Below are positions 31,949 through 53,895 of a stretch of 56,379 nucleotides of DNA, piece after piece. Source of the stretch: an uncultured Synergistales bacterium (GTDB lineage Bacteria > Synergistota > Synergistia > Synergistales > Aminobacteriaceae); contig CALCQG010000168.1 of the NCBI GenBank assembly GCA_937897575.1, positions 1 to 56,379 of the forward strand. The letters are read 5' to 3'. Below the pieces are notes generated by a model. That model saw only the letters and a program-made list of their open reading frames with translations, was not told the origin of the DNA and searched no databases. How positions within the stretch are numbered: position 1 is the first letter of the stretch; every line of letters starts with the position of its first letter. Both the position numbers and the translations under genes were made by a program.

Positions 31949-33469
31949 CTATACTCTTTGACGAATCACATCGATAATGGACCCATCCCGGTATTCCACT
32001 ATGCCGATGATTCTTTCTCCGAAGGGAGGCATGGAGGGCACGCCTGTCATATTCTCCGCCATCTTCTTCAGGTCATGAATATCCATGAGAGGAAGCCCCT
32101 TCCCCCTCAAATTATCGAGAAGATCCTTTCTCCCCGGATTCACTGCGATTCCTCGTTCGGTAACCACCACATCCACCGTATTTCCCGGAGTTGTCCGCGT
32201 TATCACCTGATCGACCACCATGGGCATTCGTCCTCGGAAAAGTGGAGTGACGATGACCGTGATCTTTGCTCCGGCTGCGGTATCCATATGTCCGCCTATA
32301 CCGTGCAGAAGAACGCCGTCCGATTCAGTGTTCACATTTACATTGAAATCCGTGTCCACTTGGGTAGCGCCGAGAACTGCCACGTCGAGCATATCGACAA
32401 CACACCCCTTAGCGGCAGTGTTTGCATAAAACGACGCACTCATCTCCACATGATTGGGGTTGCACGCAAGGGAGGCCACAGCCTCGAGGTCAAAGGACTG
32501 GACATCGAGCAGTGTCCGGAAAAGTCCCTCTTTGAGCATATCCACACTCTGCCCCGTAATGCCTCCCGATATGAAACTCCCCCTGACTCCTCTTTTTTTC
32601 ATGCTCTCTCTGATGCATGCGGAAGCAGCGAGGGAAATCCCCCCGGCTCCAGCTTGCATGGAAAATCCGTCAATAAGAAGACCGCTTTCTTCCACAACTC
32701 GAGCAACCTGTTCCGCAATAAGAAGCCTCATGGGATCCTGCGTTATTTTGAGCGTCCCGGAGACGATTTTCTCCGGGACACCGATCTTCTCCACCGGAAC
32801 AACCCAATCCACTTCCGTTTGGAGCAGGGAGAACGGAGTTACGGGATAGGGAAGCAAATTATCTGTGATGGCTATGACAGTATCGGCGTACTGTGCATCC
32901 GTAAAAGCGTACCCAAGGGATCCACAGGCAGAAGGGCCGATGACTCCCGAAACGTTCCCCATCTGGTCAGCCGATGGTGCAGCGAGTATTGCGATGTCAA
33001 CGTGGAGATCGCCTGTCTGAATGGCCCGGACTCTGCCTCCATGTGACCTGAGCACAACGGGGGCTACAAACTCGCCATGAGAAGCGGCCTGTCCAACAGG
33101 CCCGTTCACGCTGCCCTGAATCGTCCGTATAACACCGTTTTTCACGTGTCTCAACAGTGCCTCGTGAACCGGGAAAAGAGCCGATGGAGCAAGCGTGATA
33201 TCCCTGATGCCCATCTCGGCAACGATATCCAGCACCATATTCACCACGAGGTCTCCATTCCGGAGGTGATGATGGAAGGAGAGGGTCATTCCGTCCCGTA
33301 TTCCCGCTCTATGGAGCGCTTCGCGTACCGTTGAGACGATTTTCCCACATCGTTTGGGAGTACGAGGCATCTCGGCCAAGGACGAGGTAGCTCCGGCTTG
33401 AAAGGAACGGACATTCTTTATCCCAGGGAGCGTGTCCGGTATTACACGGACATTTTTGTCCAATGTCAT
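31949..33469 (-). CDS. citF: Citrate-lyase-type alpha subunit (acyl-ACP transferase)
   Basis: SFHHHLRNGD, RSHGGR, CGSLGY, QAGAGG, GGHMDTA and EYRDG motifs. Confidence 0.92.
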   Translation of the reverse strand: MTLDKNVRVIPDTLPGIKNVRSFQAGATSSLAEMPRTPKRCGKIVSTVREALHRAGIRDGMTLSFHHHLRNGDLVVNMVLDIVAEMGIRDITLAPSALFPVHEALLRHVKNGVIRTIQGSVNGPVGQAASHGEFVAPVVLRSHGGRVRAIQTGDLHVDIAILAAPSADQMGNVSGVIGPSACGSLGYAFTDAQYADTVIAITDNLLPYPVTPFSLLQTEVDWVVPVEKIGVPEKIVSGTLKITQDPMRLLIAEQVARVVEESGLLIDGFSMQAGAGGISLAASACIRESMKKRGVRGSFISGGITGQSVDMLKEGLFRTLLDVQSFDLEAVASLACNPNHVEMSASFYANTAAKGCVVDMLDVAVLGATQVDTDFNVNVNTESDGVLLHGIGGHMDTAAGAKITVIVTPLFRGRMPMVVDQVITRTTPGNTVDVVVTERGIAVNPGRKDLLDNLRGKGLPLMDIHDLKKMAENMTGVPSMPPFGERIIGIVEYRDGSIIDVIRQRV

Positions 33470-34362
33470 GAGAGCACCCCCTCATCGCGATATCCTGCCG
33501 CCTCGGCAAGTGCAATGATTTTTCGAGCTTTAGTCACGACCGGGGCATCGATCATTTTCCCGTTCAGGGCTATGACGCCCGATTTTTTCTGTTTTGCCTC
33601 CTCTATGGCATGTACGACACGGCGAGCAAAGGATATTTCCTTTTGAGACGGCGTAAACGCCCTGTGTACTACGGGTATCTGTCGGGGGTGTATCACCGAT
33701 TTTCCGTCGAATCCGAGGCGGCGGGCAGCATAGGCCTCGTCGAAGAGCCCGTCACTATCGTTTACATCCGCAAAAACGCTGTCCAATGCATGGACACCGG
33801 CTATTCTGGCGGCTACGACAATTTTCGCGCGAATATCGTCTAATTCCCGACCCTCTTTTGTTCGGACAGCTCCGATGTCTGCGGTGTAGTCCTCGGCGCC
33901 ATAATTCACACCGGTAATCCTCCGGCTCGATCGCACAATATCCAAGAGGTTGATACCCCCTAACGCAGATTCGATCATCGGGATGATCTTGACGGAACCG
34001 ATCTCTATACCATTTTTTCGTTCGATCTCCGTTATGAGCTGATCGGCCTGTACCACATCTTCTGGGGCCTCACACTTGGGGAGACGGACGGCATCAGGTT
34101 TCATGGGGATGATCTCCATGAAATCCTCCTGTCCGAAGTGTGTGGATAGTGCGTTGACCCGAACGGTCACTTCCGTAGTGCCGTACCTAATGGAGCGGAG
34201 TGCATTTCGGACGAGTATCCGGGCCGAATCTTTCTCTGTGACAGTAATGGCATCCTCGAGGTCCAGGATGATACAGTCGGCACCATATACGGATGCATTT
34301 TGCAGCATACTCGGATTATTGCCCGGAATATAGAGAGAGGTCCGGCGTAACCCCGTCTTCAT
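33466..34362 (-). CDS. citE: Citrate-lyase-type beta subunit (citryl-ACP lyase)
   Basis: RRTSLYIPGNNP, DLEDA, VRVN, GAEDY, GFDGKSVIHPRQ and GKMID motifs. Confidence 0.92.
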   Translation of the reverse strand: MKTGLRRTSLYIPGNNPSMLQNASVYGADCIILDLEDAITVTEKDSARILVRNALRSIRYGTTEVTVRVNALSTHFGQEDFMEIIPMKPDAVRLPKCEAPEDVVQADQLITEIERKNGIEIGSVKIIPMIESALGGINLLDIVRSSRRITGVNYGAEDYTADIGAVRTKEGRELDDIRAKIVVAARIAGVHALDSVFADVNDSDGLFDEAYAARRLGFDGKSVIHPRQIPVVHRAFTPSQKEISFARRVVHAIEEAKQKKSGVIALNGKMIDAPVVTKARKIIALAEAAGYRDEGVLS

Positions 34363-34652
34363 GGCCGTTCACTTCCTTCCGGGAGAGCCGCAAGAGCTCT
34401 CCGAACAGCTGTTTCCACGCGTGCGCGCAGCGTACAGTCCAAGGCCCCTCTATCCTGGACCTTCAGAACTCCGCACATGACGTTCAATTCCTGAAGTACA
34501 CCGGTGATTGCATCGCGCATCTCCTTCTCAAAGGAGACAAGGGACGGGCTGTCTAACTGTATCTCTATACCCTCCCCCTCCGATGGTATTGTCGCTATTA
34601 CCAAAGCGTCGCAGGATTCGAGCGTTCCTGCCTGTCCAACTTTGTTCGTCAT
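34359..34652 (-). CDS. citD: Citrate-lyase-type acyl carrier protein (gamma subunit)
   Basis: AGTLESCD (attachment Ser retained) and DRGALDCTLRARVETA. Confidence 0.92.
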   Translation of the reverse strand: MTNKVGQAGTLESCDALVIATIPSEGEGIEIQLDSPSLVSFEKEMRDAITGVLQELNVMCGVLKVQDRGALDCTLRARVETAVRRALAALPEGSERP

Positions 34653-34700
34653 TGTTCTGCCTCCAAGGGTACGTTGCCCTCTATGATTGATCGGAACCCT

Positions 34701-35531
34701 TTACTCATGCGCGGCGTAATGTAAGGGCATCGCAGACCCTGTGTATTTATGCACATTGAACATGGCTTCGACAACTCCCCCAGCTATGGAAAAGGCTTTG
34801 TCTGAGATCGTTTGCCAACTTCCTTCTACGTTTCTCGGGTCAATGTCGCCGATTTTCATGCCTTTATGAACGGGAACCGCCGGATGAATCAGCCCTCTGA
34901 TAAGCCCAGCGATATTCGCTGTTATGGGTACGTCTCCAACATATCCAAGAAAATCTCCCTGAGACACGACATCTCCGATCTCCCGATGCGCTGCAAAGAA
35001 ACCGGCGCCTGGAGAACGAATTACACGGCGCTCTCCCTCGCCACCAATGATGCCGGGAACACCGGTATTTGGAATGGCGCAACCGCGGTCAATGACCCTG
35101 CCTAAAAAATGTCCTCGTTTTGTTTCGATCACGTAATGAACATCTTTCCCGGCGGTGAAACCTGGCCCCAGTCCGATCACGAGAGGAGCCATATCACGCG
35201 ATGTGCCAGTATTTCGCTTTGCTATGATGGCATCCACTACGCATTGCGGCTGCATTTGACGTATGTAGGCGCCCTTCGGATCGACCCAGACAGGAACGTA
35301 CGACCAATCCGTCGGCAGTACACCTGCCTGTTGGACCGCAAATCGCAACCCCTCCACCGTCACTTCGCCTTGAAAAACAGCTTCAGCAGCGCTGACGGTA
35401 CGTCTGATTACCGTCGGCAACTCGACTTCCAGACATACAATCCGAAACCCCATGCGGTGAAGACGCCAGATGACTCCTGTAGCAAGGTCACCTCCACCTC
35501 GTACTATGACAAGATCATTGAGACGGGGCAG
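34701..35531 (-). CDS. yqeB: Selenium-dependent molybdenum hydroxylase system protein YqeB (probable CTG start)
   Basis: The frame extends upstream of the ATG at 35453 through LVIVRGGGDLATG; IRRTVS, ETKRGHFLGR, PNTGVPG, KIGDIDPR and ISDKA motifs. Confidence 0.9.
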   Translation of the reverse strand: MPRLNDLVIVRGGGDLATGVIWRLHRMGFRIVCLEVELPTVIRRTVSAAEAVFQGEVTVEGLRFAVQQAGVLPTDWSYVPVWVDPKGAYIRQMQPQCVVDAIIAKRNTGTSRDMAPLVIGLGPGFTAGKDVHYVIETKRGHFLGRVIDRGCAIPNTGVPGIIGGEGERRVIRSPGAGFFAAHREIGDVVSQGDFLGYVGDVPITANIAGLIRGLIHPAVPVHKGMKIGDIDPRNVEGSWQTISDKAFSIAGGVVEAMFNVHKYTGSAMPLHYAAHE

Positions 35532-36123
35532 GGGGACACACCTCTTTTCCTTTCAGCAACTCATAATCCCGAGGGGTATCGACGTCAAAAAAACAGTAAT
35601 CGGCGCCTGAAATAAACGATACTTCATCCTTATATCGTCCAATGATCTCCCGTCCTCCCATATCCCCCGATGACTCCAGCAATCGGTGTTTCCATATCGG
35701 GCGGAACCACGAGGGGTGGCCGAAACGACCATCACGGACCGGGATCATAGCGCTCTTGTTTTGGGGAAGTTCGAGAAATGAAGATCGAAGCCCCCTTAGT
35801 ACCTCGCTCGTAACCATGGGCATATCCCCAAGGAGAATACAGAATGAGTCCTCTTTCGATTCAATGGCGCGAAGCCCAAGCTGTAATGAGCCGGACTGTC
35901 CCGCTTCCGGTTTTTCATTGAGAACGAACTGTACGCGGTTGTACCCCCACGACGTTACGACGGACAAGGTCTCCCGGGAAACTACTACGTACGTCATGTC
36001 AAAATCACTCTTCTGGGCAGAGTCGATAACAGCGGAGAGGAGAGTTCCTCCCATATAGGGGAGAAGAAGTTTGTTCGTCCCCATCCGCATCGATCTGCCC
36101 GCTGCCAAAATCAGTGCGTCCAT
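35515..36123 (-). CDS. mocA: Molybdenum cofactor cytidylyltransferase (MocA-like, NTP_transf_3)
   Basis: LAAGRSMRMGTNKLLLP, LGDMP, GHP, GDMGGR and DVDTPRDY motifs. Confidence 0.85.
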   Translation of the reverse strand: MDALILAAGRSMRMGTNKLLLPYMGGTLLSAVIDSAQKSDFDMTYVVVSRETLSVVTSWGYNRVQFVLNEKPEAGQSGSLQLGLRAIESKEDSFCILLGDMPMVTSEVLRGLRSSFLELPQNKSAMIPVRDGRFGHPSWFRPIWKHRLLESSGDMGGREIIGRYKDEVSFISGADYCFFDVDTPRDYELLKGKEVCPPAPSQ

Positions 36124-36856
36124 CCTCTTTCCACCTCAGGGATCCTGCATATATTTCATCAAATCTGGTCAACGAGGCCACCGTCTCTCGTACTCGCAGC
36201 ATATCCTCTTTATCTTCTACAATATCCATCTTGTTGATGAAAAGAATACGGCGACGGCCAGGTCGGTCTTTGCTCCCTTTCAGGAAAATCTCAGGGTGCT
36301 CCAATATCTCTGCCAGTTTCAACGCCTTCGGCTTTATGTTCGCTTCCAGACCGCTTGAAGCAAGAAAGCGGGCATATCTGAACACTATTTCCTCGTTCAA
36401 CGGCATACAAAAAAGTTCCGCTCCCACAACGACTATATGGCATGTTGTCTTATCGGGAATGACCGGTTCGTGGGCCTCGTATCCTTTGACTGGGAACCCT
36501 TTCGCTCCATCGGCCTCAACAATAACAAAGTCTGCCACTCCTGATTGATAGAACCTATCGACCTCTTCGGCCCCGAATCCTGTCAACTTCTCTTCGGAAG
36601 TACCACTGAAAACTCCGACACAGAAAGATTGCCTGAAGGCATGAGGTATCGTCTTGTCAATACACTCGAAAGGGCCGGAAACGACTTTCATGTAGGAAGG
36701 AATCTGATTCCTTCCTACATGGGTCGTGGTCGTAAACAGAGCGCGTTTTCCGCCCCGTCCGCCTGATTCACAGAGAGAGAAGGCAAGTGACGATTTGCCA
36801 CCCGCTCCTGTTATCGATATGAGTTCCCTCTCCCGAAGATCAAGGCATTGGGACAT
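36005..36856 (-). CDS. yqeC: Selenium cofactor biosynthesis protein YqeC
   Basis: ITGAGGKSS, TTTTH and VEADGAKGFPVK...HEPVIP motifs; the 3' end overlaps mocA by 119 nt. Confidence 0.88.
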   Translation of the reverse strand: MSQCLDLRERELISITGAGGKSSLAFSLCESGGRGGKRALFTTTTHVGRNQIPSYMKVVSGPFECIDKTIPHAFRQSFCVGVFSGTSEEKLTGFGAEEVDRFYQSGVADFVIVEADGAKGFPVKGYEAHEPVIPDKTTCHIVVVGAELFCMPLNEEIVFRYARFLASSGLEANIKPKALKLAEILEHPEIFLKGSKDRPGRRRILFINKMDIVEDKEDMLRVRETVASLTRFDEIYAGSLRWKEDGRTDFGSGQIDADGDEQTSSPLYGRNSPLRCYRLCPEE

Positions 36857-36876
36857 GACAACTTCTCTATCTCATA

Positions 36877-39351
36877 CTACAGACGCGTGACTTTGAGCAC
36901 GTCGCACCGCAGGCAACGGCATGTCTCATGAATCATCTGTTCTTCCGTCAACCCCTCTTCTATTTCATCGAAACAGACCTCTCTGTTGCAGACAGGGACA
37001 GACTTCATCACGGCTCGTTTTGACGGGGTCTCGTCCACCGGTTTGGAGAGCGAACGTACGTAGGTGACCCTATCGACAACTTGTCCGTCACCACCAAGGT
37101 ATCTGTCGATGGATGAAGCCGCCTGTTTACCTCCGTTGACGGCGCGAACTACGGAATCAGGACCTGTGATACAGTCACCACCGGCGAAGAGATACGGGAT
37201 ATTCGTATTCCCATCGTAGGTCGCAGCGAATGCATTACCGCGGCGTTCAATTCTTTCCTCCAGTTTTTCCTGGAAGGAGTCATCCAAGCTCTGACCTATG
37301 GCAACAATGACAAAGTCCGCGTCCACTTCCATGGTTTGAGAATCATCGCAGACCGGTGCGAAGCGCCCCTCCTTGTTGAAGACGGAGAGACACTTTCTGA
37401 ACACAACGCTTTTCACGCCATTGGAATCTCCCTTGATCTCCATAGGGCTCCAGCTGCAGTTCACTTCAGCGTCCTCCGAACAACACTCCTGTACTTCCCA
37501 TTCGTGAGCCGGCATTTCATCAAGCTTTTCCAAGCAGTAGAGGCCCACTTTTTCCGCCCCAAGCCGTATGGCGCTCCGGGCGCAATCAATTGCCACGTTG
37601 CCTCCCCCGACAACGATCACGGACTTCCCTTTCAAGTCGATCTGCTCACCAAGGTTAATGCTTCTCAGGAAGCGTACTCCGGAGAGGACATTGGGATACT
37701 CCTCTCCTGGAATCCCAAGTTTTCGCTCTCCATGGGAGCCGACTCCCATATAGACCGCAACAAACCCCATATCCCTCAGGGATTCGAGCGTAAAATCCAC
37801 TCCGAGTTTCTTGTTTGTTTCAAACTTGACCCCCATGGATCTGTAGACATCAAGCTCTTTCTCAAATATCTCCCGGGGCAGTCTATACGCAGGAAGCCCA
37901 AGAACCAGCATGCCACCAATCTTCGAGGTCTCTTCGAAAACTGTCACGCTGTACCCCTTCTTCTGGAGATAGAACGCGCAGGAGAGCCCGGATGGGCCCG
38001 AACCGATCACAGCGATCTTCTTCCCGTTCGATTTTGCCACCTCCGGGACTGGAAGCACGCCGTTTTGCTTAAGAAGCACGTCCGTGATAAAACGTTTCAC
38101 CCCGTTAATGGCGATCGGTTCGTCGATCTTCACCCTGTTGCACAGATCCTCGCAGGGGTGGTTACATACCCTGCCGCAGGCCAGAACAAGCGGGTTTTCC
38201 GCCTGAATAACCCTGTATGCCTCTTCGTATCGCTTCTGTCGTGCCAGATCAAGATAAATGGGGACTGGGACATTGGAAGGGCATGCATTCTGGCAGGTAT
38301 AGCGCATACAGTGCACCGGAGCCTTGGGATCGTGTCGTTCGTAGAGACACTCCGTGCAGTAGAGACACTCCTTGATATGATCGTATCTCCTGTCTCTGGC
38401 CTTTTTCAGCCACATGGAGTCTGCGATGAGCGGTCTGGCCAATGCGACCATATCCGCTCTCCCGGACTCGATGACCTCGTTTGCAAATTTTGGATCTCCA
38501 AGCTTTCCTACTGTTACGACCGGCACATTGACATGTTTTTTGATATCCTCGGCCAGGTATACGTTCGGGCCATCCGGGTATTCGATTCCAGGTTTCCCCC
38601 GCTGGTCACTGTACCCCTTCACAGGCGCATCATCAAAACGGACCCCCGCAGAGACATCCATGCAGTCAACACCGTTTGCCACCAGCTCTTTGGCGAAAAT
38701 ACGGCTCTGGACAATAGTGTTACCTCCCACGACGAACTCTTCGGCACTGATCCTGGCAAAGACGGGATAGTCGGGGCCCACCAACGCTCGAACACGTTTT
38801 AATATCTCAAGGTGGATGAACATTCGGCCGTACACGTCGCCTCCGAATTCATCGGTACGCGTGTTCGTCCTTCTTGAGATGAAATCCGCCATGGTATACG
38901 TGTGGGCATAATGGAGTTCCAGAACGTCGAACCCCGCCTTGACCGCCCGCTCGGCACCGGCGACGAAGTCATCGATTATTCCGTAGCAGTCTGCATTCGT
39001 CAGCTCATCGATCTTGACGCCGGCACCATAAATGGAGTGGGCTATCTGAAGGCCGATCAGGCAGTTCTCCTGATGGACCGCTGCTACCAGACGATTCAGG
39101 CCGGCAATATGTTCGTCGGAGCTCACCTGCAATCTTTGTCCCGCGTGGATGTATTTCGAACTTACGCTCGTATGCTCGGTCATGATGAGCCCCACGCCGG
39201 AACGAGCCCGATCGACGTAGTGTTTGATGGTATCTGGAGAGACGAAACCGCCCGGCGCCGCCGAATTCGTGAACATAGGCGACATGATGACTCTATTGGG
39301 GATCGTGAGACGATTAATCGTTATTGGAGAAAAAAGATTCGGTCTGTCCAC
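36877..39351 (-). CDS. Old-yellow-enzyme (NADH:flavin oxidoreductase) domain fused to a GltD/PreT-like Fe-S/FAD module
   Basis: NRVIMSPM, AGFDVLELHYAHTY, NTRTDEFGG, ARPLIAD, CLYCTEC..C; then CQNACP, CGRVCNHPCEDLCNR, GSGPSG, GGGNVAIDCAR, AGGD and CRCLRC. Confidence 0.85.
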   Translation of the reverse strand: MDRPNLFSPITINRLTIPNRVIMSPMFTNSAAPGGFVSPDTIKHYVDRARSGVGLIMTEHTSVSSKYIHAGQRLQVSSDEHIAGLNRLVAAVHQENCLIGLQIAHSIYGAGVKIDELTNADCYGIIDDFVAGAERAVKAGFDVLELHYAHTYTMADFISRRTNTRTDEFGGDVYGRMFIHLEILKRVRALVGPDYPVFARISAEEFVVGGNTIVQSRIFAKELVANGVDCMDVSAGVRFDDAPVKGYSDQRGKPGIEYPDGPNVYLAEDIKKHVNVPVVTVGKLGDPKFANEVIESGRADMVALARPLIADSMWLKKARDRRYDHIKECLYCTECLYERHDPKAPVHCMRYTCQNACPSNVPVPIYLDLARQKRYEEAYRVIQAENPLVLACGRVCNHPCEDLCNRVKIDEPIAINGVKRFITDVLLKQNGVLPVPEVAKSNGKKIAVIGSGPSGLSCAFYLQKKGYSVTVFEETSKIGGMLVLGLPAYRLPREIFEKELDVYRSMGVKFETNKKLGVDFTLESLRDMGFVAVYMGVGSHGERKLGIPGEEYPNVLSGVRFLRSINLGEQIDLKGKSVIVVGGGNVAIDCARSAIRLGAEKVGLYCLEKLDEMPAHEWEVQECCSEDAEVNCSWSPMEIKGDSNGVKSVVFRKCLSVFNKEGRFAPVCDDSQTMEVDADFVIVAIGQSLDDSFQEKLEERIERRGNAFAATYDGNTNIPYLFAGGDCITGPDSVVRAVNGGKQAASSIDRYLGGDGQVVDRVTYVRSLSKPVDETPSKRAVMKSVPVCNREVCFDEIEEGLTEEQMIHETCRCLRCDVLKVTRL

Positions 39352-39381
39352 TGTGCCTTCATCCTTCCTGCTAGGTTGTGT

Positions 39382-39864: not shown

Positions 39865-39879
39865 GGTCGTACTTCCCTC

Positions 39880-45913: not shown

Positions 45914-45923
45914 CTCTGCTTTG

Positions 45924-45961: not shown

Positions 45962-45976
45962 GCTTTTCGCGTGTAC

Positions 45977-46975
45977 TTACTTCGCGCTCTTCTCCGCAAA
46001 GTATTTTTCCGCACCCGGGTGGAGCGGTGCGGGGGCTACATCGTGCAGAGATTCGAGCGTCAGATCTTTCAGAGAGCTATGGATACTCTTGAAATACTCG
46101 AAGTTCTCGTCGATCGCCTTAACAACCGCGTACGCGGCATCGTCCGAAAGATCGGCGTTCGTGAATAGGACAACGGTCGCACCGACGGTGGGGACATCCG
46201 CTGTCAGGAAGTTGTACTTATCCTTTGGGATCACCGTTGAATAGGTTCCCAATTTGTCATTCACCGTCTTCTGAGCACCCTCCGACATCCCAAACAGATT
46301 CAAGCCCACGTTCGTCGAAATATCGACGACATGGCTGGAAGGGACCTGGATAACGTTGCTGTAGGCCTGGATCTTGCCATCTCTCATCAGATCGAGCGAG
46401 GCCCCCATGGACATGAAGTCCGCATTTCCGCCCCACTTTTTAAGGTCATCGTAGGTTATACCGTAGGCAGCGAGCACTTCGCGTCCAACGATTTCCATAA
46501 AGGAGTCCTTCGTATTGAAATTCACCTTCAAGGGGAACTGCTTTTCCTTCAGCTGTTCGAAGCTTTCCACCCCGCTGTCCCGACGTACGATGAAATGTTC
46601 CACTGCCTCTTTGTAGAGGACACAGAGTGCACGGAGATTGTCATACTTCTCTTTGAAGGGAGGAACACCTTCCATCCCCATCTTCAGAAGCTGCGCGTGG
46701 GCTATACCAAGCTCAATCTTTCCTCGGGAGACCAGTGCAAGGTTAGCCGCTTCCTGTCCGACTTCATACGCCGTGTTCGAACCAGGGAAGCTTCTGCGTA
46801 TAACCTCTCCTACACCTTCGCCGATCGCCGCCCATGCTCCGCCGATCGAACCACCGCATATGGACAGGTTGTACTTCTCAGCGGCTTGCCCCACCGCGGC
46901 GCTCATGCATCCCACACCCACAAACACGGCAAGAACAGACAACATTACGAACTTCACGCAAATCTTTTTCATCAT
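45977..46975 (-). CDS. TAXI family TRAP solute-binding protein
   Basis: Signal peptide; GGSIGGAW, YKEAVEH, IPKDKY and C-terminal APLHPGAEKYF. Confidence 0.9.
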   Translation of the reverse strand: MMKKICVKFVMLSVLAVFVGVGCMSAAVGQAAEKYNLSICGGSIGGAWAAIGEGVGEVIRRSFPGSNTAYEVGQEAANLALVSRGKIELGIAHAQLLKMGMEGVPPFKEKYDNLRALCVLYKEAVEHFIVRRDSGVESFEQLKEKQFPLKVNFNTKDSFMEIVGREVLAAYGITYDDLKKWGGNADFMSMGASLDLMRDGKIQAYSNVIQVPSSHVVDISTNVGLNLFGMSEGAQKTVNDKLGTYSTVIPKDKYNFLTADVPTVGATVVLFTNADLSDDAAYAVVKAIDENFEYFKSIHSSLKDLTLESLHDVAPAPLHPGAEKYFAEKSAK

Positions 46976-47121
46976 TTCGACCCCTCTCTTTTGTCAAAAG
47001 AAATCACCACTTTGAATCGTCAGCGCAACCATTCGGGACAATAAACTGAGGGTTTTAAACGGCATCGGTGGACTGTTTGCCTTACCCGCCCCCTTTCATT
47101 GAATAAAAAGAGATTCGCGGA

Positions 47122-48648
47122 TCAGTCTTTTTTCTTCGCGTAGTGTTGGTATCGTCCCTCTTCATAAACTTCATCGAGTGTTCGCATTGCATGAACATGT
47201 CCCTTGATTTTCCTGTACTCATCCACTGTCATCGTATATTCGATCGGCGCGACGACGGCAGGCGAAGGAGTATACGTAAACGGCCTATCCACCATCTTTT
47301 CCACATCGGCAAGGAACGTGATTCCCCCGCCGGGCATCAGGAACGTAGGGGCTCCTGCTATTGAAAGAACCGCATCTCCTCTATGGACTGCCTTCGTAAT
47401 CTGTATGGGATCCGGGGTTACGCCTGCTCTTGCACTGCCTCCCACTCCTGCGTAATACATCGCAGACACTCTGCTGTCCTCGCAAGAATCAGCGGCCATT
47501 TTCCTGAATTCCTCAAGTTCTTTTGGTATTGAGATCTGGAAAGGCTGCCCTTTTTCGTCAACTTCAAAAAGAGCAATCTGCCGCCACGTTGTTTCGGCGA
47601 CAAGAATCTTCAGCCCAGGATGCGCAATGGACATGTCAATATCTTTGATTGCCTCAATCGGATTTTGAATCGCGGTTCCGCCCCAACCATCCCCATGATC
47701 GAAGAAATACCGCCCTGGAGTGGCAAATCTGCCGACAGGAGTGACCCCGCTATAGGCCTTCAATTCGGCTCCTGCCGGATGCTTTGTGAAGAGTCCTGTA
47801 ATATGGTGATCGATAATGATCGCTTCATCCACAAGAGGCGCAAGGGATTTTGCAAACAGGCCACAGCAAGCTCCACCGCATCCTACGCGCATTTTTTCAT
47901 CCACGATGCCGTTGATGACCGGATGATGGCCGACTTGGATCTCCAACGTCGCACCTTTTTCAACAGTGAATTTTATCCGCTCCTGATTACCTATGGCGGA
48001 CATAGCTTTCACAACGTACATGCCATCCGGGCCTTTGACCTTGTTCACCCCGCCAAGTATGAGAATCTGTGATCCGTACTGTTCCACCGATACGGAGCCC
48101 ACCGGTTTCCCTTCGTACTTGACAGCGGCCCCCTCGTCGCCGATATGGGCGTTCGTGTCGATCTTCACCATCATGGAACTGTAGGAAATAGGCGCCTCTG
48201 TCACAACCGTGACGACATCGATATCGTCCCTCTTCTGCGTCACAATATAAGGTGCCGGTTTATAATCCGGATAGCCCGCTCCTGCGCCAACAGCCGAGAT
48301 GACCGGATAGGAGATCGCAACTTGTTTCCTGGAGGGTTCGCCATCGCTGGGGATCTGCAGAGGCCGATTCCGGACAAGTTCCCCTGAATGATTCGAAAAA
48401 CGCTTGCAGGCGCCATACTTCCCCTCAGGGATGAGGCACTTCACGCCGCAATTCTTACAGAGGAGCTTCACCTCTGTTTCAGCAGTCTCATGTATCGCAT
48501 CAAATTTGCAGTATTTTACGCAGGAGAGACAGTTCACGCAGTCACCGGCAAGGTATGCTTTCTTATCCCGCATCTCCAAGGCGCCCATGGGGCACACCTT
48601 CGTGCATACCGTGCAGCCAACGCATTTTCCCTTATCGACGGATATCAT
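47122..48648 (-). CDS. 6-hydroxynicotinate reductase (Hnr) homologue
   Basis: N-terminal 2x[4Fe-4S]; CxxCxxxC..GAC.R; GAG..YPDYKPAPYIV, VTVVTEAPISYS, MRVGCG, DHHITGL, TPGRYF, GGSARAGV, PGGGI and VAPIEYTM match the Eubacterium barkeri Hnr family as I recall it. Confidence 0.88.
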   Translation of the reverse strand: MISVDKGKCVGCTVCTKVCPMGALEMRDKKAYLAGDCVNCLSCVKYCKFDAIHETAETEVKLLCKNCGVKCLIPEGKYGACKRFSNHSGELVRNRPLQIPSDGEPSRKQVAISYPVISAVGAGAGYPDYKPAPYIVTQKRDDIDVVTVVTEAPISYSSMMVKIDTNAHIGDEGAAVKYEGKPVGSVSVEQYGSQILILGGVNKVKGPDGMYVVKAMSAIGNQERIKFTVEKGATLEIQVGHHPVINGIVDEKMRVGCGGACCGLFAKSLAPLVDEAIIIDHHITGLFTKHPAGAELKAYSGVTPVGRFATPGRYFFDHGDGWGGTAIQNPIEAIKDIDMSIAHPGLKILVAETTWRQIALFEVDEKGQPFQISIPKELEEFRKMAADSCEDSRVSAMYYAGVGGSARAGVTPDPIQITKAVHRGDAVLSIAGAPTFLMPGGGITFLADVEKMVDRPFTYTPSPAVVAPIEYTMTVDEYRKIKGHVHAMRTLDEVYEEGRYQHYAKKKD

Positions 48649-48700
48649 TTTATTCTCTCCTTCCGGGCTCCCATCAAAGCGGTATGAAACATTTTGGAAG

Positions 48701-49951
48701 TTATATCTTCCCCGCTTTTCTAGCCCCAAGAATCGTCAGCAGGCGCTGCTGCTCGTTGTTTACGATCATGACTCCTTCGTCGACGCCCATGCCCGGCTTC
48801 CCCGCCATGGCGAACGGTTTGGTTGCAACTGCGAGATTGACGCAGACCAAGGCGGACTTGTCCGTCTCGTTGCATGTCCCGCCCTGGTATGCCAGAACAC
48901 CGTGTTTCTTACAGTACAGCACAGCCTCGACGATATTGTTAATGCCTCCGAGGTCAATGGTCTTTACCTGAACCATATCTGCGCCCTTCGCGTCGACCCA
49001 CTGAACGATCTCTTCATAGGTGTTCGCATATTCGTCGATGATCAGCTTCAGCTTTGAGCCGGCCTCGTCCAATTTTCTGCGAAGATACTTCATCCCCTCG
49101 AGCTGTTTGTCATTGCTCTTGAGGTCGATGGGCATTTCTATGAACACCTCGTACGGCGAGCACGCTTCTTCGACTTTAAGGAGGTACTCCACAACCTTGT
49201 CAAGATCGTCATTGAAGGCCTTTCCCATACACCCGTACACGTCATACCGCATCACTGGCTTATAGTCCGGGGTGCCAATCTCTTGAATGCGGTTTTTCAC
49301 CCATTTCACCCATTTCAGGAAGATTTCGCCGTCCTTGCCGAGTTTTTCCTCGACATTATTGATAAGACCGTGGGGCATCATACCTACTTTCTTGAGGATC
49401 ATCTTGTCGACGTTTGTGTACCGTTCGTCGCCAGACTGAGCGTTGATCCGGACAGGCGTGAGGTCAAGAGGGAGCTTGTACTCCTTCATGATGACTTCAG
49501 TCATGGTGCACTTGTTCGTCTTGGCAACCGTCTCAAGCACTGCTTGGGTCACACCGTACCGTATAGAAGCGGGCAGCTGATGACCGTCGAAGAGCTTCTT
49601 ATCGAACTGCTCCGCTGTAGCCTTGAACTCGGTGATATCCTTTCCCTCAAAATAGGGAACAACATATTTCTCAATGACATCCATCAGGGCTTTCCCAGTG
49701 TTCGGAACCTCCCTACCACCGCTCGCCGCATACTGGGCAACAGAACAGTCACCGTACGCTATCTCGCCGTTTTCCAGAACGAACATGACGGATACTGCCA
49801 CTCCCGGCTGGCGTATCGTTTTGAAACCCGCAGTCAGAGGTTCTCCCTTGTATATGAAACCGTCAGATTTGGCTCCAGCCTTTATAGCCTCTTTGTCATC
49901 CATATAGAACCCCGTCATACACTCACAGCACAGTACTTTTTTCACCTTCAT
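48701..49951 (-). CDS. Methylaspartate ammonia-lyase homologue with an altered substrate pocket
   Basis: GFYMDD, GDC..QY, AQSGDERY, PHGLINN, DVYG, IE.P, DEYANT, QVKTIDLGG, YQGGTCNET and KPGMGVDEG motifs. Confidence 0.9.
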   Translation of the reverse strand: MKVKKVLCCECMTGFYMDDKEAIKAGAKSDGFIYKGEPLTAGFKTIRQPGVAVSVMFVLENGEIAYGDCSVAQYAASGGREVPNTGKALMDVIEKYVVPYFEGKDITEFKATAEQFDKKLFDGHQLPASIRYGVTQAVLETVAKTNKCTMTEVIMKEYKLPLDLTPVRINAQSGDERYTNVDKMILKKVGMMPHGLINNVEEKLGKDGEIFLKWVKWVKNRIQEIGTPDYKPVMRYDVYGCMGKAFNDDLDKVVEYLLKVEEACSPYEVFIEMPIDLKSNDKQLEGMKYLRRKLDEAGSKLKLIIDEYANTYEEIVQWVDAKGADMVQVKTIDLGGINNIVEAVLYCKKHGVLAYQGGTCNETDKSALVCVNLAVATKPFAMAGKPGMGVDEGVMIVNNEQQRLLTILGARKAGKI

Positions 49952-50009
49952 CGTATATTCCCTCCGTTAATTGTTTAGATTTATATTTGGGCCCTCTTGT
50001 GCAGTTTTT

Positions 50010-51359
50010 CTATCGAAGAACTTTACCGTCCTTTGCCACGAGCTTCCCGCCGACATAAACCCTCTCTACGTTTTTGATCTCGGGGTAGGACGTGACAAGA
50101 ATGTCCGCTCCGAACCCTTTTTTCAGCTGGCCTAGATTTGGCGCAATCAACGGCAGAGCCTCTGTCACTTTTGTGGTTCCCTGAGCAACCGCCTTCGCGA
50201 AACCAACCAATTTCTTCTCCAAGCTGGCATGCTGGATTCCTTCCAACATGGAATCGCTCGCCCCAGCTGCAAAATCCGTCGAAATGATGTCCACCAAGTC
50301 GTTTTCATAGAAGGCAAAGAGGTTCTCGGGAGTCGCAACAAGCTTTTTGGCACCGAAGGGATCATGCACTGCTGCGTCGAGAATGACGCCGGGGAACTGC
50401 TTGAGGTACTTTCCATTTTCAACGCACTCATCCTTTGTGAAAAGATAGTTCGAGTGACAAGCGATAAGTGTGTTCAGCCCCATCTTCGCGATTTCATGGA
50501 CGATATATTTTGACGTGGGTGCATTGTGGATCATCAACGGCATGTTATATTTCTTTGCAAGATCTGCCGCCTCACGATAACCGTCCAATGCGACCTTGAC
50601 GGAAGAGAGGGTCGTCTTGTATACGATATCCCTCGTCTCCTCAGGTGTCAGGAAATCGTCCAGTTTATGTTCTTTTAGAGCTGCGGCAACACGGTCTCTG
50701 TCATAGTAACTTTCTTCTATGTATCGTCCAAGCACGGACAACTTCATTGCCCGTGCCTGAAGGTAGTCAATATCCTTTCCTTTCAGAGCTTTAACGGCTC
50801 TCGGAATATAAAGATAATCCTGACCGCCACCACCCAGAGTATGCCCTCCACCGACCTCTCCTATACACACAGCGCCCTCGGACAGCATTTTCTCGACTGT
50901 CATGGTGCGGTGTTCTTCTTTCAATCCTTTTCCGTCACAGAGATCAGCCGCCTTGAGATTAATCGGTGCGTGCGTCGTAGCAGCCTTTATGCGAATGGGA
51001 TGATGCCGCTGCGTCTCTTTGACCTCATCCATCGTGACGAAACCGTCGATATTAAGAACCGTCGTATGTCCCTGCAGAAGGCTGCGATCAAGGTGGTTCA
51101 TAATAAAATCGCGTCCGTAGTTCTCGCAACCACTGGCGAACATCGGGCCAAAGGTGATGCCGTGTTGGTGATGATTGATCATTCCGGGCAGAACACACTT
51201 TCCGGTACAATCAATGACCTCCTCCGCATATGCATCGAGCGACGGGTCCAGACTCTGCTCCACGCCCACTATCGTGTCATCAACGACGACGACTGCGCCG
51301 TTTTCGTACATCGTCTTCCCGTCTCCCGTAACCACTACGCCGTTCTTGAAAATCTTCAC
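50010..51359 (-). CDS. Metal-dependent amidohydrolase (putative lactamase)
   Basis: PGMINHHQHG (HxH), GEVG, IHNAP, CHSN, STDF and GQLKKGFGADI amidohydrolase-fold motifs. Confidence 0.82.
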   Translation of the reverse strand: MKIFKNGVVVTGDGKTMYENGAVVVVDDTIVGVEQSLDPSLDAYAEEVIDCTGKCVLPGMINHHQHGITFGPMFASGCENYGRDFIMNHLDRSLLQGHTTVLNIDGFVTMDEVKETQRHHPIRIKAATTHAPINLKAADLCDGKGLKEEHRTMTVEKMLSEGAVCIGEVGGGHTLGGGGQDYLYIPRAVKALKGKDIDYLQARAMKLSVLGRYIEESYYDRDRVAAALKEHKLDDFLTPEETRDIVYKTTLSSVKVALDGYREAADLAKKYNMPLMIHNAPTSKYIVHEIAKMGLNTLIACHSNYLFTKDECVENGKYLKQFPGVILDAAVHDPFGAKKLVATPENLFAFYENDLVDIISTDFAAGASDSMLEGIQHASLEKKLVGFAKAVAQGTTKVTEALPLIAPNLGQLKKGFGADILVTSYPEIKNVERVYVGGKLVAKDGKVLR

Positions 51360-51378: not shown

Positions 51379-52242
51379 CTAGAATGTAAAATTCGTCACA
51401 GCCCGTCGCGGGTCAAAGCAACATCCAGTTCTCAGCGAAACGACGCGTATACCACTCGCCCGTTGTGGTCCCACCTTGACAAAAGTCCCTAAAACGGTCG
51501 TGTCACCTCCGAGGCCTAACGCACCGACTGCGGATTGGTTCACGCCTTGCGTTATCCGTTGTTCAATCTCAGATTGCTGGGAGAAATTCCCCTTTGCCAT
51601 CGCTTCAAGACTAAGAGAAGCTGCCTCAAGATGCGAACGCCCTATGCCGTATGCAAGAACACACGGTTGGCAGCCCAGCATCTTCGCCCCCTCTGTTCCC
51701 CAGGCGATCATTTCATTGATCACGGTATCAGCCGAGTGTTTGTGAAAAACGCGCAATGTTTTTCCACGAATTTCGGGGCCTCCTCCGTACATGAGCACCG
51801 TAAGGGCAATCGAGCCACCTTCAACACGACGGATTTGAACAGGTGCCATCGCGAGGGCACCTGAGTCCTCATAGAGTCCTCTGGACTGAGATAGACGCTC
51901 CAGATCGCCTCCACGGACAGCCATTGGTCTGCCGGGCAGTTTCCGAAGCCCCGAAGCAATTCCGTCTTCCACAGCTTTCAGAAATCCCGCCGGGACAGCG
52001 GCAGCGTCGCCTATTTCAAGCAGCACATGAGGAATACCGGTATCGTCGCAAAGAGGAAGTTGCATCTTCTCCGCCATTTCGGCGTTTTGGAGAATGGTCT
52101 CGAGCACCCACTTAGCGTGCTCATTCGATTCCGATGCGTGCGCTCGCTGGTATGCTTCTTTCTGATCCTCTCCGAAAGAGGTGCTCGCCTTCACAAGAGT
52201 TTCGGCTGTCTTTACCGTGACGTCCTTAAGCGTATTCATCAC
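51379..52242 (-). CDS. Class I fumarate hydratase / tartrate dehydratase-like alpha subunit
   Basis: PLCDDTG, GGGPE, GCQP, GALGLGG and terminal GCC Fe-S ligand motifs. Confidence 0.85.
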   Translation of the reverse strand: MMNTLKDVTVKTAETLVKASTSFGEDQKEAYQRAHASESNEHAKWVLETILQNAEMAEKMQLPLCDDTGIPHVLLEIGDAAAVPAGFLKAVEDGIASGLRKLPGRPMAVRGGDLERLSQSRGLYEDSGALAMAPVQIRRVEGGSIALTVLMYGGGPEIRGKTLRVFHKHSADTVINEMIAWGTEGAKMLGCQPCVLAYGIGRSHLEAASLSLEAMAKGNFSQQSEIEQRITQGVNQSAVGALGLGGDTTVLGTFVKVGPQRASGIRVVSLRTGCCFDPRRAVTNFTF

Positions 52243-52757
52243 TTGTCACCCTTATCATCGAATATTGACTGACCGTGTGCGATCGCCACGATAGCAGAGA
52301 AATTTTTCACCTGAAGGACATGCATCGCCTCCATCCCTTCCTCTTCGAAAGCGACGATTTTTTTGTTCTGAATCGTGGAGGTGAGCAGTGCGGAGACGGG
52401 GGGATTAACGGCAAAAATCGAATTATACTCTTTCAACACATCCACTGTGGTTTGAGAGAGCCTGCCCTTTCCGATGTGAATTTTCACGCCGGCTTTGGAG
52501 AGCATTGGGATGGAACCTTCGATATCGAGTTTGTTGCTTGAAGTCGGACCTATGCCAGCAGGACTCACAGCAGTGTGAAATATTATGCTGCCATTCAGGT
52601 TGATTCCGTACTTCTCCAGCTCGTCTTTTTCAATCATTTGTACTAATTTTGGCAGAGCAGCATCACGCCCCGTATAAATCGAACCTGTTATTTCCAGTTT
52701 ATCGTAAATTTTCAGTGAGCTTATGACGGAATCAGCGACCGGGGTTAAAATCAGCAT
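52239..52757 (-). CDS. Class I fumarate hydratase-like beta subunit
   Basis: TGRDAA, GPTSS, IGKG and EEGMEA motifs. Confidence 0.85.
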   Translation of the reverse strand: MLILTPVADSVISSLKIYDKLEITGSIYTGRDAALPKLVQMIEKDELEKYGINLNGSIIFHTAVSPAGIGPTSSNKLDIEGSIPMLSKAGVKIHIGKGRLSQTTVDVLKEYNSIFAVNPPVSALLTSTIQNKKIVAFEEEGMEAMHVLQVKNFSAIVAIAHGQSIFDDKGDK

Positions 52758-52802
52758 TTAAAGTCCCTTCTTTCCATGAAAGTAAACAAAAAACAAGCTT
52801 AA

Positions 52803-52817
52803 TTCCAATATATGGAA
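52803..52817. promoter_or_regulatory. Putative IclR-family operator
   Basis: TTCCA-ATATA-TGGAA dyad between the promoter and the first gene of the cluster. Confidence 0.6.
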
Positions 52818-52842
52818 GTTGATTTCTTAGTTTGGTAATGCG

Positions 52843-52872
52843 ATTATATTATTCCACGAGCATTTCTGTCAA
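52843..52872 (-). promoter_or_regulatory. sigma70 promoter of the catabolic cluster
   Basis: Minus strand TTGACA-18 nt-TATAAT, both hexamers perfect consensus. Confidence 0.8.
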
Positions 52873-53097
52873 GAAACCAGCCGTGGATACACGAAAACAT
52901 GTACAGCCGAGTACCTTACAATGTTTTTCTTCAGCGGATACCACACTGTTTTCGCTTTGCCGTAATTGAAAGCGCCATCGTAGCCAAAGGGAAATTGATA
53001 TAATAACAGCTATAACTCAATGATTACGATTGATTGAGAGCGTACCTCATGACCCTGTTCGCTTATATTTGCCCGTGTACAGTACGAGGAGTGGGAG

Positions 53098-53895
53098 ATG
53101 TACATGAAGAACAAGCGTTCGCCGGAAGGCACGAATTCATTAAAAAAAGGGCTCTCCGTGCTCTCCTGTTTCACGTGGGAGAACACATCGCTTACACTGA
53201 CTGAAATAGCAAGATGTCTTGATCTTCCGATGCCTACAGCATCGAGGATAGCAAGGGCACTCGAAGAAGAGGGTTTTTTGGAGAGAGACAGGAACACAAA
53301 AGCCTATCATTTGGGTTTTAAATGCTATCTCTTTGGTTCCATGGCTAAAAAAACGGGAGGCCTTCGTAATCTTGTTCTTCCATACATGCAGGATCTTAAA
53401 GAGCGTTTTAACGAGACGGTGAATTTTTATGTTCGCGAAGGCTTTATGAGGACCTGCTACGAGCAGGTCGAGAGCTCTTGGGATTTAAAGCGTACTGCGA
53501 AACTCGGAGCGAAATTTACACTTTGGGCGGGTGCAGCTGGGCGCTGCTTCTTGGCTTTTATGAAAGAACAAGACGTCGCGTTGATTCTTGAGGAAGCGGA
53601 AGCTCTGACGGAAAACACGATTCTGAATAAATCAACCGTCTACGCCCTCTTGGAAAAAATTCGTATTGAAGGGTTCTCCACCAGCAACTCCGAAAGAGAG
53701 CGCGGCGTATACTCTATTGCGGTCCCCATCATGAACGACGAACAACAGGTGGTGGGATGTATGACCCTCTCGGGGCCCACGGTCCGTTTCACCGATGACG
53801 TGACCCGGGCGATGATACCCGCCATAAAGGAGGCCTGCCTGCTTATCTCCTTGAAGCTGGGGGCACCCGTGGACTTCATCGGCTTCCTGAGGTAG
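53098..53895 (+). CDS. IclR family transcriptional regulator
   Basis: SLKKGLSVL...LTEIA...TASRI...GFLER HTH; ETVNF, GAAGRCFLA and GVYSIAVPI...SGPTVRF effector domain. Confidence 0.92.
   Translation: MYMKNKRSPEGTNSLKKGLSVLSCFTWENTSLTLTEIARCLDLPMPTASRIARALEEEGFLERDRNTKAYHLGFKCYLFGSMAKKTGGLRNLVLPYMQDLKERFNETVNFYVREGFMRTCYEQVESSWDLKRTAKLGAKFTLWAGAAGRCFLAFMKEQDVALILEEAEALTENTILNKSTVYALLEKIRIEGFSTSNSERERGVYSIAVPIMNDEQQVVGCMTLSGPTVRFTDDVTRAMIPAIKEACLLISLKLGAPVDFIGFLR

Follow-up and report, generated by a model that had tools for sequence, protein, structure and literature searches.

We describe a gene cluster of an uncultured Synergistales bacterium (Aminobacteriaceae) that, judging from its enzyme families and their active-site residues, is probably a laterally acquired operon for the anaerobic fermentation of quinolinate (pyridine-2,3-dicarboxylate). 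It lies in contig CALCQG010000168.1 of assembly GCA_937897575.1, analysed over its full length of 56,379 nt (hereafter the window, to which all coordinates refer; labels of the form L001 and G001 denote loci and genomes in our comparative scans). The cluster is real, conserved and apparently undescribed. It very likely encodes a catabolic route in which a heterocycle is converted to a 3-substituted aspartate and the product is carried on to a C-C cleavage. We lean towards the fuller reading of a self-contained, redox-balanced quinolinate fermentation across gut and digester Synergistota and Bacillota, with homocitrate cleaved by three kinds of lyase and with four undescribed activities, which would be a quinolinate 6-hydroxylase with an enamide reductase, a 6-oxopiperidine-2,3-dicarboxylate lactamase, a carboxyethyl-aspartate ammonia-lyase and a trans-homoaconitate hydratase.

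To our knowledge, the genes for degrading pyridine carboxylates without oxygen are established mainly for nicotinate. Quinolinate is a neuroactive product of the kynurenine pathway of tryptophan and a precursor of NAD, and the cluster, if correctly read, would provide a gene-level route for its anaerobic removal by gut, rumen and digester bacteria, with cultured strains such as Lutispora saccharofermentans m25, Cuneatibacter sp. NSJ-177 and Ca. Formimonas warabiya DCMF among the carriers. It would further illustrate cleanly how three non-homologous C-C lyases can serve the same step, add a new family to the amidohydrolases and a class I hydratase of the tricarboxylate type, and supply a natural counterpart of an engineered ammonia-lyase biocatalyst; databases would misread the carrier genomes as glutamate or nicotinate fermenters. 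Among the literature matches listed, in a search that left most subscription journals outside, we found no description of the cluster or of anaerobic quinolinate use.

Organisation, conservation and origin of the cluster

As originally predicted, the genes form one co-directional cluster with a divergent regulator: 18 genes on the minus strand (52757-31949), spaced by -119 to +146 bp, stand opposite an IclR-family gene on the plus strand (53098-53895), and all 19 open reading frames were found at their predicted positions and judged to be real genes. In order of transcription, the 18 encode the beta and alpha subunits of a hydratase, an amidohydrolase (AH), an ammonia-lyase of the methylaspartate ammonia-lyase (MAL) family, an Hnr-like reductase, a TAXI protein, a UPF0280 protein, the large (Mo) subunit of a molybdenum hydroxylase, a TRAP permease, the FAD and 2Fe-2S subunits of the hydroxylase, an OYE fusion protein, YqeC, a MocA-like protein, YqeB, CitD, CitE and CitF.

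A scan of GTDB genomes with an AH alignment yielded 43 loci, 25 of them close (AH identity of at least 56%) and 18 distant (at most 44%). MAL adjoins AH in all 25 close loci, the hydratase is found in 24 (the remaining contig begins at AH) and Hnr likewise in 24; MAL, hydratase and Hnr occur in none of the distant ones. The carriers are named as Synergistota and Bacillota and include Lutispora, Ca. Formimonas, Cuneatibacter, Oscillospiraceae, Desulfovirgula and Dethiobacter, among others. Across 268 genomes of the host's phylum, which as kin are not independent, AH is present in 20, 19 of which also have Hnr, and Hnr occurs in no other. The core gene set recurs by more than chance. The expectation that it would do so without glutamate mutase was largely borne out, the core being present in 25/25 loci and glutamate mutase E in 4/25 genomes (3 above the cut-off), each time on another contig and never beside the cluster. 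One cluster genome serves as an internal control in that it holds the full canonical set of MutL, MutE, a second MAL (47% identity), CmlAB and fumarase (L255), and there the MAL beside the mutase is canonical (F170, L384). In the window, in agreement with the original prediction, neither glutamate mutase nor the lower nicotinate enzymes Hgd, Hmd, Mgm, Mii, Dmd and Dml are among the cluster genes; in the host genome (96% complete), glutamate mutase E, PrpF/Mii and nadA were not found, Hgd, Hmd and Mgm having been sought in the cluster only.

The GC content is ~0.52 inside the cluster and ~0.62 outside, and the drop falls exactly at the cluster ends. Because MAL is found in 0/60 relatives of the host, and AH and Hnr in 0/106 genomes of its family, we regard the cluster as a lateral island, whose nearest homologues carry the names Synergistales or Synergistaceae.

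Separately, the distant AH members of L032-L043 (34-40%), from Actinomycetota and other groups, have PrpD, a DAO-family oxidase and ABC transporters of the peptide type as neighbours, and appear to belong to a different pathway.

An ammonia-lyase with a rebuilt C3 pocket

The ammonia-lyase (48701-49951, minus strand) scores 482 bits against TIGR01502 (cut-off 286) and aligns to the MAL of C. tetanomorphum (CtMAL) with one gap; its top PDB match is the engineered variant CtMAL-L384A (3ZVI), at 443 bits versus 440 for the wild type. We compared 25 full-length cluster MALs (that of the window and those of 24 loci, leaving out one partial row and one cluster-type representative) with 54 others, comprising the canonical MAL of L069 and 53 representatives of 370-480 aa among the first 70 matches listed. 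The equivalents of Q73, Q172, H194, Q329, K331, Y356, T360 and C361 and of the Mg ligands D238, E273 and D307 are kept in 25/25 and, since these are the catalytic, metal and backbone residues, an aspartate backbone with a free amine should still be bound.

The side-chain pocket is another matter. The methyl pocket of MAL is described as F170, Y356 and L384 (accessible part of PMC7241714), and the L384A substitution as widening it so that large C3 substituents are admitted (accessible part of PMC7586795). Instead of this hydrophobic pocket, all 25 cluster MALs carry N, Y and A: N170 where others have F, L, Y or H, the retained Y356 equivalent, and A383 at the position of L384, which is Leu in 39/54 others. 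They further share R235 at the position of H236 (His in 42/54 others) and A381 with G or S384, and 24/25 have R or K at position 168. Positions 170, 235 and 383, each two residues before an active-site residue on its strand, should share one layer of the barrel. Engineered CtMAL-L384A and the natural cluster enzyme share Ala at the position of L384, but the latter has additional polar or basic changes (N170, R235, R168), which suggest that the substituent is carboxylated. In a FastTree phylogeny, the cluster MALs fall into a single clade (32 rows, support 98). We read them as acting on an aspartate whose amine is free and whose C3 group is larger and probably bears a carboxylate; specificity for methylaspartate, named in advance as evidence that would count against the prediction, is made unlikely by the rebuilt methyl pocket.

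A separate subfamily of class I hydratases

The hydratase consists of a class I fumarase-type beta subunit (52239-52757, minus strand; PF05683, below the TIGR00723 cut-off), which is kept across cluster loci, and an alpha subunit (51379-52242, minus strand; TIGR00722, above cut-off), and is the proposed trans-homoaconitate hydratase. The alpha subunit keeps the Fe-S cysteines C65, C191 and C274/C275 and has CDD where fumarate hydratase 7XKY has CQD, a motif that is invariant within its subfamily. This subfamily is 25-34% identical to the mutase-linked class I hydratases and occurs elsewhere beside PrpD, citryl-CoA lyase, CmlAB or a LigK-type aldolase, neighbours that point loosely to tricarboxylates.

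Several other settings of the subfamily were encountered. Directly downstream of the cluster in Ca. Formimonas lies a paralogous cluster (L081:435-13321) with GntR, CitDEF, TAXI/TRAP, PrpD, an Fe-S protein, an FAD flavoprotein, the hydratase (51-55%) and a cytochrome b, which looks like tricarboxylate use; L122 resembles it, with citryl-CoA ligase and lyase. A recurring cluster with LysR, a DUF1932 dehydrogenase, DUF6282, TAXI/TRAP and often an RraA/LigK-type aldolase (L129, L132, L134, L135, L139, L157, L160, L167, L168, L170, L173) seems to represent another catabolic pathway. In L125, L130, L136, L138, L140 and L165, PrpD, an unassigned protein, hydratase alpha and citryl-CoA lyase stand just before an archaeal-type ATP synthase operon, and in L133, L137, L153, L156, L161 and L171 the subfamily is found within glycan or phosphonate biosynthesis loci, with phosphonopyruvate decarboxylase, ATP-grasp and glycosyltransferase partners. 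Separately, L111:396-7791 encodes a divergent glutamate mutase S/L/E, two different class I hydratases and an Ldh_2 dehydrogenase with no MAL in view, and may be a hydroxy-acid mutase pathway.

Three unrelated lyases in one slot

The window ends the operon with CitDEF: the acyl carrier protein CitD (34359-34652, minus strand; TIGR01608 above cut-off, GTLES motif kept), a CitE-family lyase, the proposed (S)-homocitryl-ACP lyase (33466-34362, minus strand; TIGR01588 354 bits, below the equivalog cut-off of 443), and the acyl-ACP transferase CitF (31949-33469, minus strand; TIGR01584 above cut-off, the assembly's sole copy). The citrate lyase components are complete, with CitC and CitX/G homologues elsewhere in the genome, on contig C165. 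The window CitE sits on a long branch, with a best identity of 53% among 31 rows and no citrate-specific placement.

CitDEF, although present in the window and treated in the original prediction as a member of the cluster, is not a fixed part of it elsewhere. A C-C lyase lies in or beside the cluster in 12/25 genomes, and it is of three unrelated kinds, four each: CitDEF (G005, G019, G021, G022); a SucCD-like ligase with a citryl-CoA lyase (PRK06224, above cut-off) between hydratase and AH (G015, G016, G020, G023); and, directly after OYE, an AtuA and DUF4387 pair (G004, G012, G014, G018) homologous to the citramalate lyase CmlAB (9ERQ; 482 and 110 bits). CitDEF is also adjacent in 4/6 further genomes, and in 6/25 genomes the cluster runs off the contig. 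From a 3-hydroxy-3-carboxy acid, all three lyase types yield a 2-oxo acid together with acetate or acetyl-CoA, so that their swapping in one slot argues for a route ending in a citrate/citramalate-type cleavage. Cml is described as splitting citramalate directly into pyruvate and acetate (accessible part of bioRxiv 2026.01.16.699985). In the cluster, CmlA has Lys near a conserved motif where mutase-linked CmlA and 9ERQ have Tyr (Lys rows: 4 cluster sequences, two of them identical, and 3 hydratase-linked ones).

Among metagenome loci (80 retained of 214 matches), L109:281-10864, and likewise L110, carries a MAL with the same pocket and the hydratase together with PrpD, a LeuCD pair and an ICL/PrpB-family lyase. 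The LeuCD small subunit of L109 reads YTKT where homoaconitase 2PKP has YLRT and isopropylmalate isomerase 3VBA has YLVY, in a loop that we take to be substrate-related, a basic residue presumably being homoaconitase-like. This single locus, with insertion-sequence remnants and no upper genes in view, would fit a chiral tricarboxylate converted to its iso-form. The LeuC of the host itself sits in a leucine operon.

The upper enzymes and the importer

The molybdenum hydroxylase has a single 770-aa large subunit (42689-45001, minus strand), identified by family profiles with no equivalog cut-off passed and proposed as the quinolinate 6-hydroxylase, an FAD subunit (39880-40749, minus strand; PF00941; first start codon at 40812, likely start at 40749) and a 2Fe-2S subunit (39382-39864, minus strand; PF01799, PF00111). 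The large subunit keeps the Glu of KGVGE (E716). R245, K315, R323 and R444, present in 21/21 cluster-type rows and absent from 3 paralogues, lie in segments that presumably line the pocket, as they do in relatives, and would suit a dicarboxylate; N319, Asn in 21/21 rows, aligns at R319 of nicotinate dehydrogenase (NDH), which we take to bind substrate. The E. barkeri-type reading of the original prediction needs correction here, the subunit being no closer to NDH (255+193 bits) than to 4-hydroxybenzoyl-CoA reductase (447 bits); scores against the reductase profiles TIGR03194/03195 stay below cut-off as well (654 vs 995 and 104 vs 405 bits). The FAD subunit has 289 aa from its likely start and 4 Cys, and hence no additional, Cys-rich Fe-S insert as in HcrB. 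The markers of selenium-dependent molybdenum hydroxylases are all present: YqeC (36005-36856, minus strand; TIGR03172 above cut-off) and YqeB (34701-35453, minus strand; TIGR03309 above cut-off) in the cluster, and a SelD homologue on contig C48. Between the two lies a MocA-like molybdenum cofactor cytidylyltransferase (35515-36123, minus strand; TIGR03310 149 bits, below the cut-off of 186). In passing, one genome (G005) holds at least 26 homologues of the large subunit.

The Hnr-like protein (47122-48648, minus strand; first start codon at 48729, likely start at 48648) has no family match beyond a ferredoxin domain and owes its label to the source names of its relatives, being 50-62% identical to proteins named '6-hydroxynicotinate reductase'. 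It belongs to a distinct subfamily of Fe-S reductases with 27 diagnostic positions (29 vs 44 rows, leaving out 2 between bands), and its AlphaFold2 model (pLDDT 92.5) matched solved folds only in the ferredoxin domain in whole-protein searches. The family at large has at least 5786 relatives.

AH (50010-51359, minus strand), the proposed lactamase, represents a new family of binuclear amidohydrolases: H64, H66, E168, H278 and H302 are invariant and D362 nearly so, giving a Glu-bridged site. The nearest folds to its AlphaFold2 model (pLDDT 95.5) are D-aminoacylase (Z 32.8, rmsd 3.5, 338 aligned), dihydroorotase (32.1), isoaspartyl dipeptidase (31.4) and enamidase (Ena, 29.8), all at most 20% identical and all enzymes hydrolysing N-acyl amino acids or cyclic amides. 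The earlier placing of AH in an E. barkeri-type upper half needs correction in that AH is not an enamidase orthologue: phmmer gave no match to 2VUN, structural alignment gave 19% identity, a profile match (E 1e-10) covered only positions 3-173, and the fold score lay below that of D-aminoacylase.

The second reductase (36877-39351, minus strand; PF00724, PF14691, PF07992), proposed as the enamide reductase, fuses an OYE-type ene-reductase to a GltD-type FAD/4Fe-4S module and has His-x-x-His-x-Tyr at residues 148-153, which we take to be the ene-reductase set. In the four clusters with citryl-CoA lyase, MetV and MetF come after the OYE half, in place of the missing NAD(P)H module (L014:12674-15939, L015, L019:12703-15936, L023); as a guess, methyltetrahydrofolate oxidation may feed the OYE-type reductase in such acetyl-CoA oxidisers. 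A second, shorter OYE copy (L001:6219-8243), 84% identical to that of the window, lies upstream of the hydratase in its locus.

The genes listed in the original prediction were all confirmed, but the list had left out the UPF0280 gene (45020-45913, minus strand; PRK04334 family, PDB 2O34 match E 1e-8), a constant companion of Hnr. Its product, presumably akin to ApbE, is possibly a flavin-attachment or maturation factor. The importer consists of a TAXI-type TRAP solute-binding protein (45977-46975, minus strand; TIGR02122 above cut-off) and a fused TRAP permease (40721-42661, minus strand; TIGR02123 627 bits, above cut-off).

TctABC (tripartite tricarboxylate transporter), UbiD and UbiX lie beside the cluster in G005, G018 and G020 (loci L017:1194-6440, L020:763-8196 and L084), and G020 has a second molybdenum hydroxylase set adjoining its UbiD. 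As a lead only, UbiD might carboxylate 6-hydroxypicolinate para to the hydroxyl to give 6-hydroxyquinolinate, a side entry that would explain the missing hydroxylase in G018; ring reduction coupled to methyltetrahydrofolate oxidation by an OYE-MetVF complex may be another variation. An MtmB-family protein without in-frame stop, a corrinoid protein and AcsV or MeTr-like genes were also seen in or near several clusters (L023:14731-16750, L105:1-7588, L017:17601-18410, L081:18630-19433).

Proposed route

Taken together, the families suggest a sequence in which TAXI/TRAP would import quinolinate and the selenium-dependent hydroxylase would convert it to 6-hydroxyquinolinate (a 6-pyridone), to which the ferredoxin-dependent Hnr-type enzyme and the NAD(P)H-dependent OYE fusion would add two electron pairs, via a tetrahydro lactam. 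The product, 6-oxopiperidine-2,3-dicarboxylate, is a cyclic N-acyl-aspartate, which AH would open to 3-(2-carboxyethyl)aspartate. From this the MAL variant would release NH3 to give trans-homoaconitate, the Fe-S hydratase would form (S)-homocitrate, and the citrate/citramalate-type lyase would release acetate (or acetyl-CoA) from it, leaving 2-oxoglutarate, whose oxidation would return reduced ferredoxin and yield ATP via succinyl-CoA. The hydroxylase would thus give one electron pair, the two reductases would use two, and 2-oxoglutarate oxidation would supply the second as ferredoxin; the atom balance closes and the sum is redox-balanced (quinolinate + 4 H2O -> acetate + succinate + CO2 + NH3), with propionate and CO2 as a possible replacement for succinate. 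The stereochemistry may fit too, as anti-reduction of the cyclic enamide (an aminomaleate) should give the threo isomer preferred by MAL, and fumarase-type hydration the (S)-form taken by CitE, citryl-CoA lyase and Cml. A PRK08659-type 2-oxoacid:ferredoxin oxidoreductase is encoded in 22/25 cluster genomes and in the host, and beside the cluster in L015; the host also has SucCD homologues.

The enzymes impose a set of constraints: the ring nitrogen must end up in a lactam, the route must include two reductions and one amide hydrolysis, the aspartate formed must carry a carboxyalkyl group at C3, and a fumarate-type hydration and a citrate-type cleavage must complete the sequence. Quinolinate was deduced as the substrate because, of the pyridine carboxylates, only the 2,3-diacid satisfies all of them. 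Worked through on paper, each of the pyridine 2-, 4-, 2,4-, 2,5-, 2,6-, 3,4- and 3,5-carboxylates would need additional enzymes to make use of MAL, hydratase and lyase, and the same holds for the acids of pyrimidine, pyrazine and imidazole. The degradation of pyridinediol (DHP) by Synergistes jonesii, whose AH homologues are 80% identical, was also set aside, as DHP gives no 3-substituted aspartate; the accessible text of PMC12366334 names no such cluster. The original idea that one substrate, quinolinate, passes through every enzyme is supported by the rebuilt MAL pocket and the swapping of lyases, the substrate itself being a deduction.

Weighing the alternatives

Several observations weigh against the quinolinate reading. 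The ligand, all substrates and intermediates, the order of reductions and the direction are deduced from the enzymes, and the pocket-facing orientation of N170, R235 and R168 in MAL from strand periodicity, not coordinates. One cluster genome (G018) is without an orthologue of the Mo subunit (best 41%), and in metagenome locus L112 none is in view; conversely, MetV/MetF, MeTr-like, MtmB-like and UbiD/UbiX genes, found in several loci, are not needed by the scheme, and 2-oxoacid oxidoreductases are common in these phyla anyway and lend weak support. At the last step, 7/25 genomes have no lyase at the cluster end and CitF elsewhere; adjacent CitE copies fall in several lineages (6 changes on the tree, with 17/500 shuffles as low) and share no residue signature. 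The CitE clade adjacent to four clusters occurs in 97/268 phylum genomes, so that it is a general enzyme and was rejected as a cluster-specific marker. Still, that clade is nearly missing from the host's family (1/106), and the sole CitDEF of the assembly came with the island, which favours a real need for a lyase. Citrate lyase of E. coli, in the accessible part of PMC4682846, does not cleave citramalate, and broad promiscuity therefore cannot be assumed, leaving room for citrate as the product: either these CitDEFs take homocitrate or the product is citrate.

Citrate would arise if the same architecture served pyrrole-2,3-dicarboxylate, via 3-carboxyglutamate and trans-aconitate, and ordinary citrate lyases could then cleave it; this and a 4- or 5-substituted quinolinate are examples of another N-heterocycle giving a 3-substituted aspartate. 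We consider such a substrate unlikely, if deserving of attention, since the lyases were recruited many times from ordinary-looking lineages, the MAL changes fit any carboxyalkyl group, and the hydratase subfamily stands beside CitDEF, PrpD and a flavoprotein in the tricarboxylate-like paralogous cluster L081. Yet a five-membered ring needs one reduction, and Hnr and OYE are both kept; the PrpD and homoaconitase-like pair of L109 would be needless for prochiral citrate; the cluster CmlA derives from the citramalate lyase family; and quinolinate is a far commoner metabolite.

Nicotinate or trigonelline is a quite improbable substrate. It would pass through 6-oxopiperidine-3-carboxylate and 2-(aminomethyl)glutarate to 2-methyleneglutarate by a MAL-type elimination, any one-carbon product being handled by C1 genes, and the Hnr family, the Se/Mo accessory genes and the MetV/MetF, MeTr-like and MtmB-like genes of several loci would be in keeping with it; the carboxyethyl side chain would fit the same MAL pocket. 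That MAL, however, retains T360/C361, where the C1 carboxylate is bound, Asn stands in place of NDH R319, and the host genome has no mutase or PrpF. Moreover, 2-methyleneglutarate is no fumarate analogue, and by established chemistry its hydrates offer none of the three lyases the 3-hydroxy-3-carboxy-acyl group they require, which upholds the earlier judgement that nicotinate fits worse. A side-by-side placement of two unrelated modules, a heterocycle hydroxylase/reductase set and an ordinary methylaspartate-mesaconate-citramalate set, could draw on the methylaspartase equivalog score of MAL and on CitDEF and CmlAB being known citramalate lyase types (in the parts of the sources available), but the genes interleave and show near-perfect co-occurrence, the MAL no longer has its methyl pocket, and the mutase is absent from 21/25 genomes, the canonical set, where present, having its own MAL; we find it very improbable. 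Scarcely credible is a reversed route in which 2-oxoglutarate, acetyl-CoA and ammonia are built up into quinolinate for NAD and the Mo enzyme takes off a hydroxyl as 4-hydroxybenzoyl-CoA reductase does: the alpha subunit of that reductase is the best single solved-structure and NCBIfam match of the Mo subunit, and no nadA was found in the host, yet most loci have the importer in the cluster, CitDEF and Cml act in cleavage, the FAD subunit is without the Fe-S insert, the host's nadC-like match is below cut-off, and the patchy spread (MAL in 0/60 relatives) fits a catabolic extra.

Relation to known pathways

In its workings, the cluster resembles the upper part of nicotinate fermentation in Eubacterium barkeri coupled to the lower part of the methylaspartate pathway, but it belongs to neither. 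The E. barkeri enzymes are Ndh, Hnr, Ena, Hgd, Hmd, Mgm, Mii, DmdAB and Dml, and the likeness lies in selenium-linked molybdenum hydroxylation beside the ring nitrogen, an Hnr-family reductase and ring opening by a binuclear amidohydrolase. The cluster hydroxylase, however, has three subunits and no R319, in contrast to the split L/M Mo subunits of E. barkeri (NDH is described as having four subunits in the accessible part of PMC10331938), and AH is only 19% identical to Ena. Since the cluster has a second reductase, nitrogen would leave by MAL elimination and not by enamide hydrolysis, and there is no B12 mutase or lower nicotinate enzyme. Hence the 'E. barkeri-type upper half' of the original prediction fits only loosely: the Hnr family and selenium markers stand, but the Mo subunit and amidohydrolase are not orthologous.

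The methylaspartate pathway, comprising glutamate mutase, MAL, mesaconase and citramalate lyase (accessible parts of PMC4682846 and PMC8473912), has in common with the cluster a reaction order running from MAL through a two-subunit class I hydratase to a lyase, CitDEF or CmlAB; the cluster differs in having no mutase, an amino acid derived from a heterocycle, a rebuilt MAL pocket and a hydratase of a separate subfamily. Homologues of CmlAB (PDB 9ERQ/9EVF), from which the cluster CmlA differs by the Tyr-to-Lys change, and of citryl-CoA synthetase/lyase (PRK06224) replace CitDEF in 8/25 related clusters and not in the window. An aerobic quinolinate route via 6-hydroxyquinolinate is known in Alcaligenes, though it was not found in the literature searched, and an anaerobic dipicolinate co-culture is also known. 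The pic cluster for aerobic picolinate catabolism begins with the kind of step proposed here, a 6-hydroxylation by a three-subunit molybdenum dehydrogenase (accessible part of bioRxiv 10.1101/530550), but its later steps need oxygenases, whereas here the ring would be reduced and hydrolysed.

Regulatory and flanking features

The IclR-family regulator (53098-53895, plus strand; PF01614/PF09339) is only 33-37% identical to the IclRs of other clusters, and many Bacillota clusters have a sigma-54 activator in its place. Between it and the operon lies an AT-rich divergent intergenic region of 340 bp (52758-53097; GC ~0.4), the presumed site of promoters and operator. A promoter scan of 31600-51000 gave 11 matches versus 15.3 in shuffles, with no excess. 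On the minus strand, a 15-pair hairpin with a T-run (45929-45961) lies 3' of the TAXI gene and may stabilise or end the upstream transcript. Just beyond the island, a dicarboxylate/amino acid symporter (54026-55339, minus strand) has a host-like GC content.

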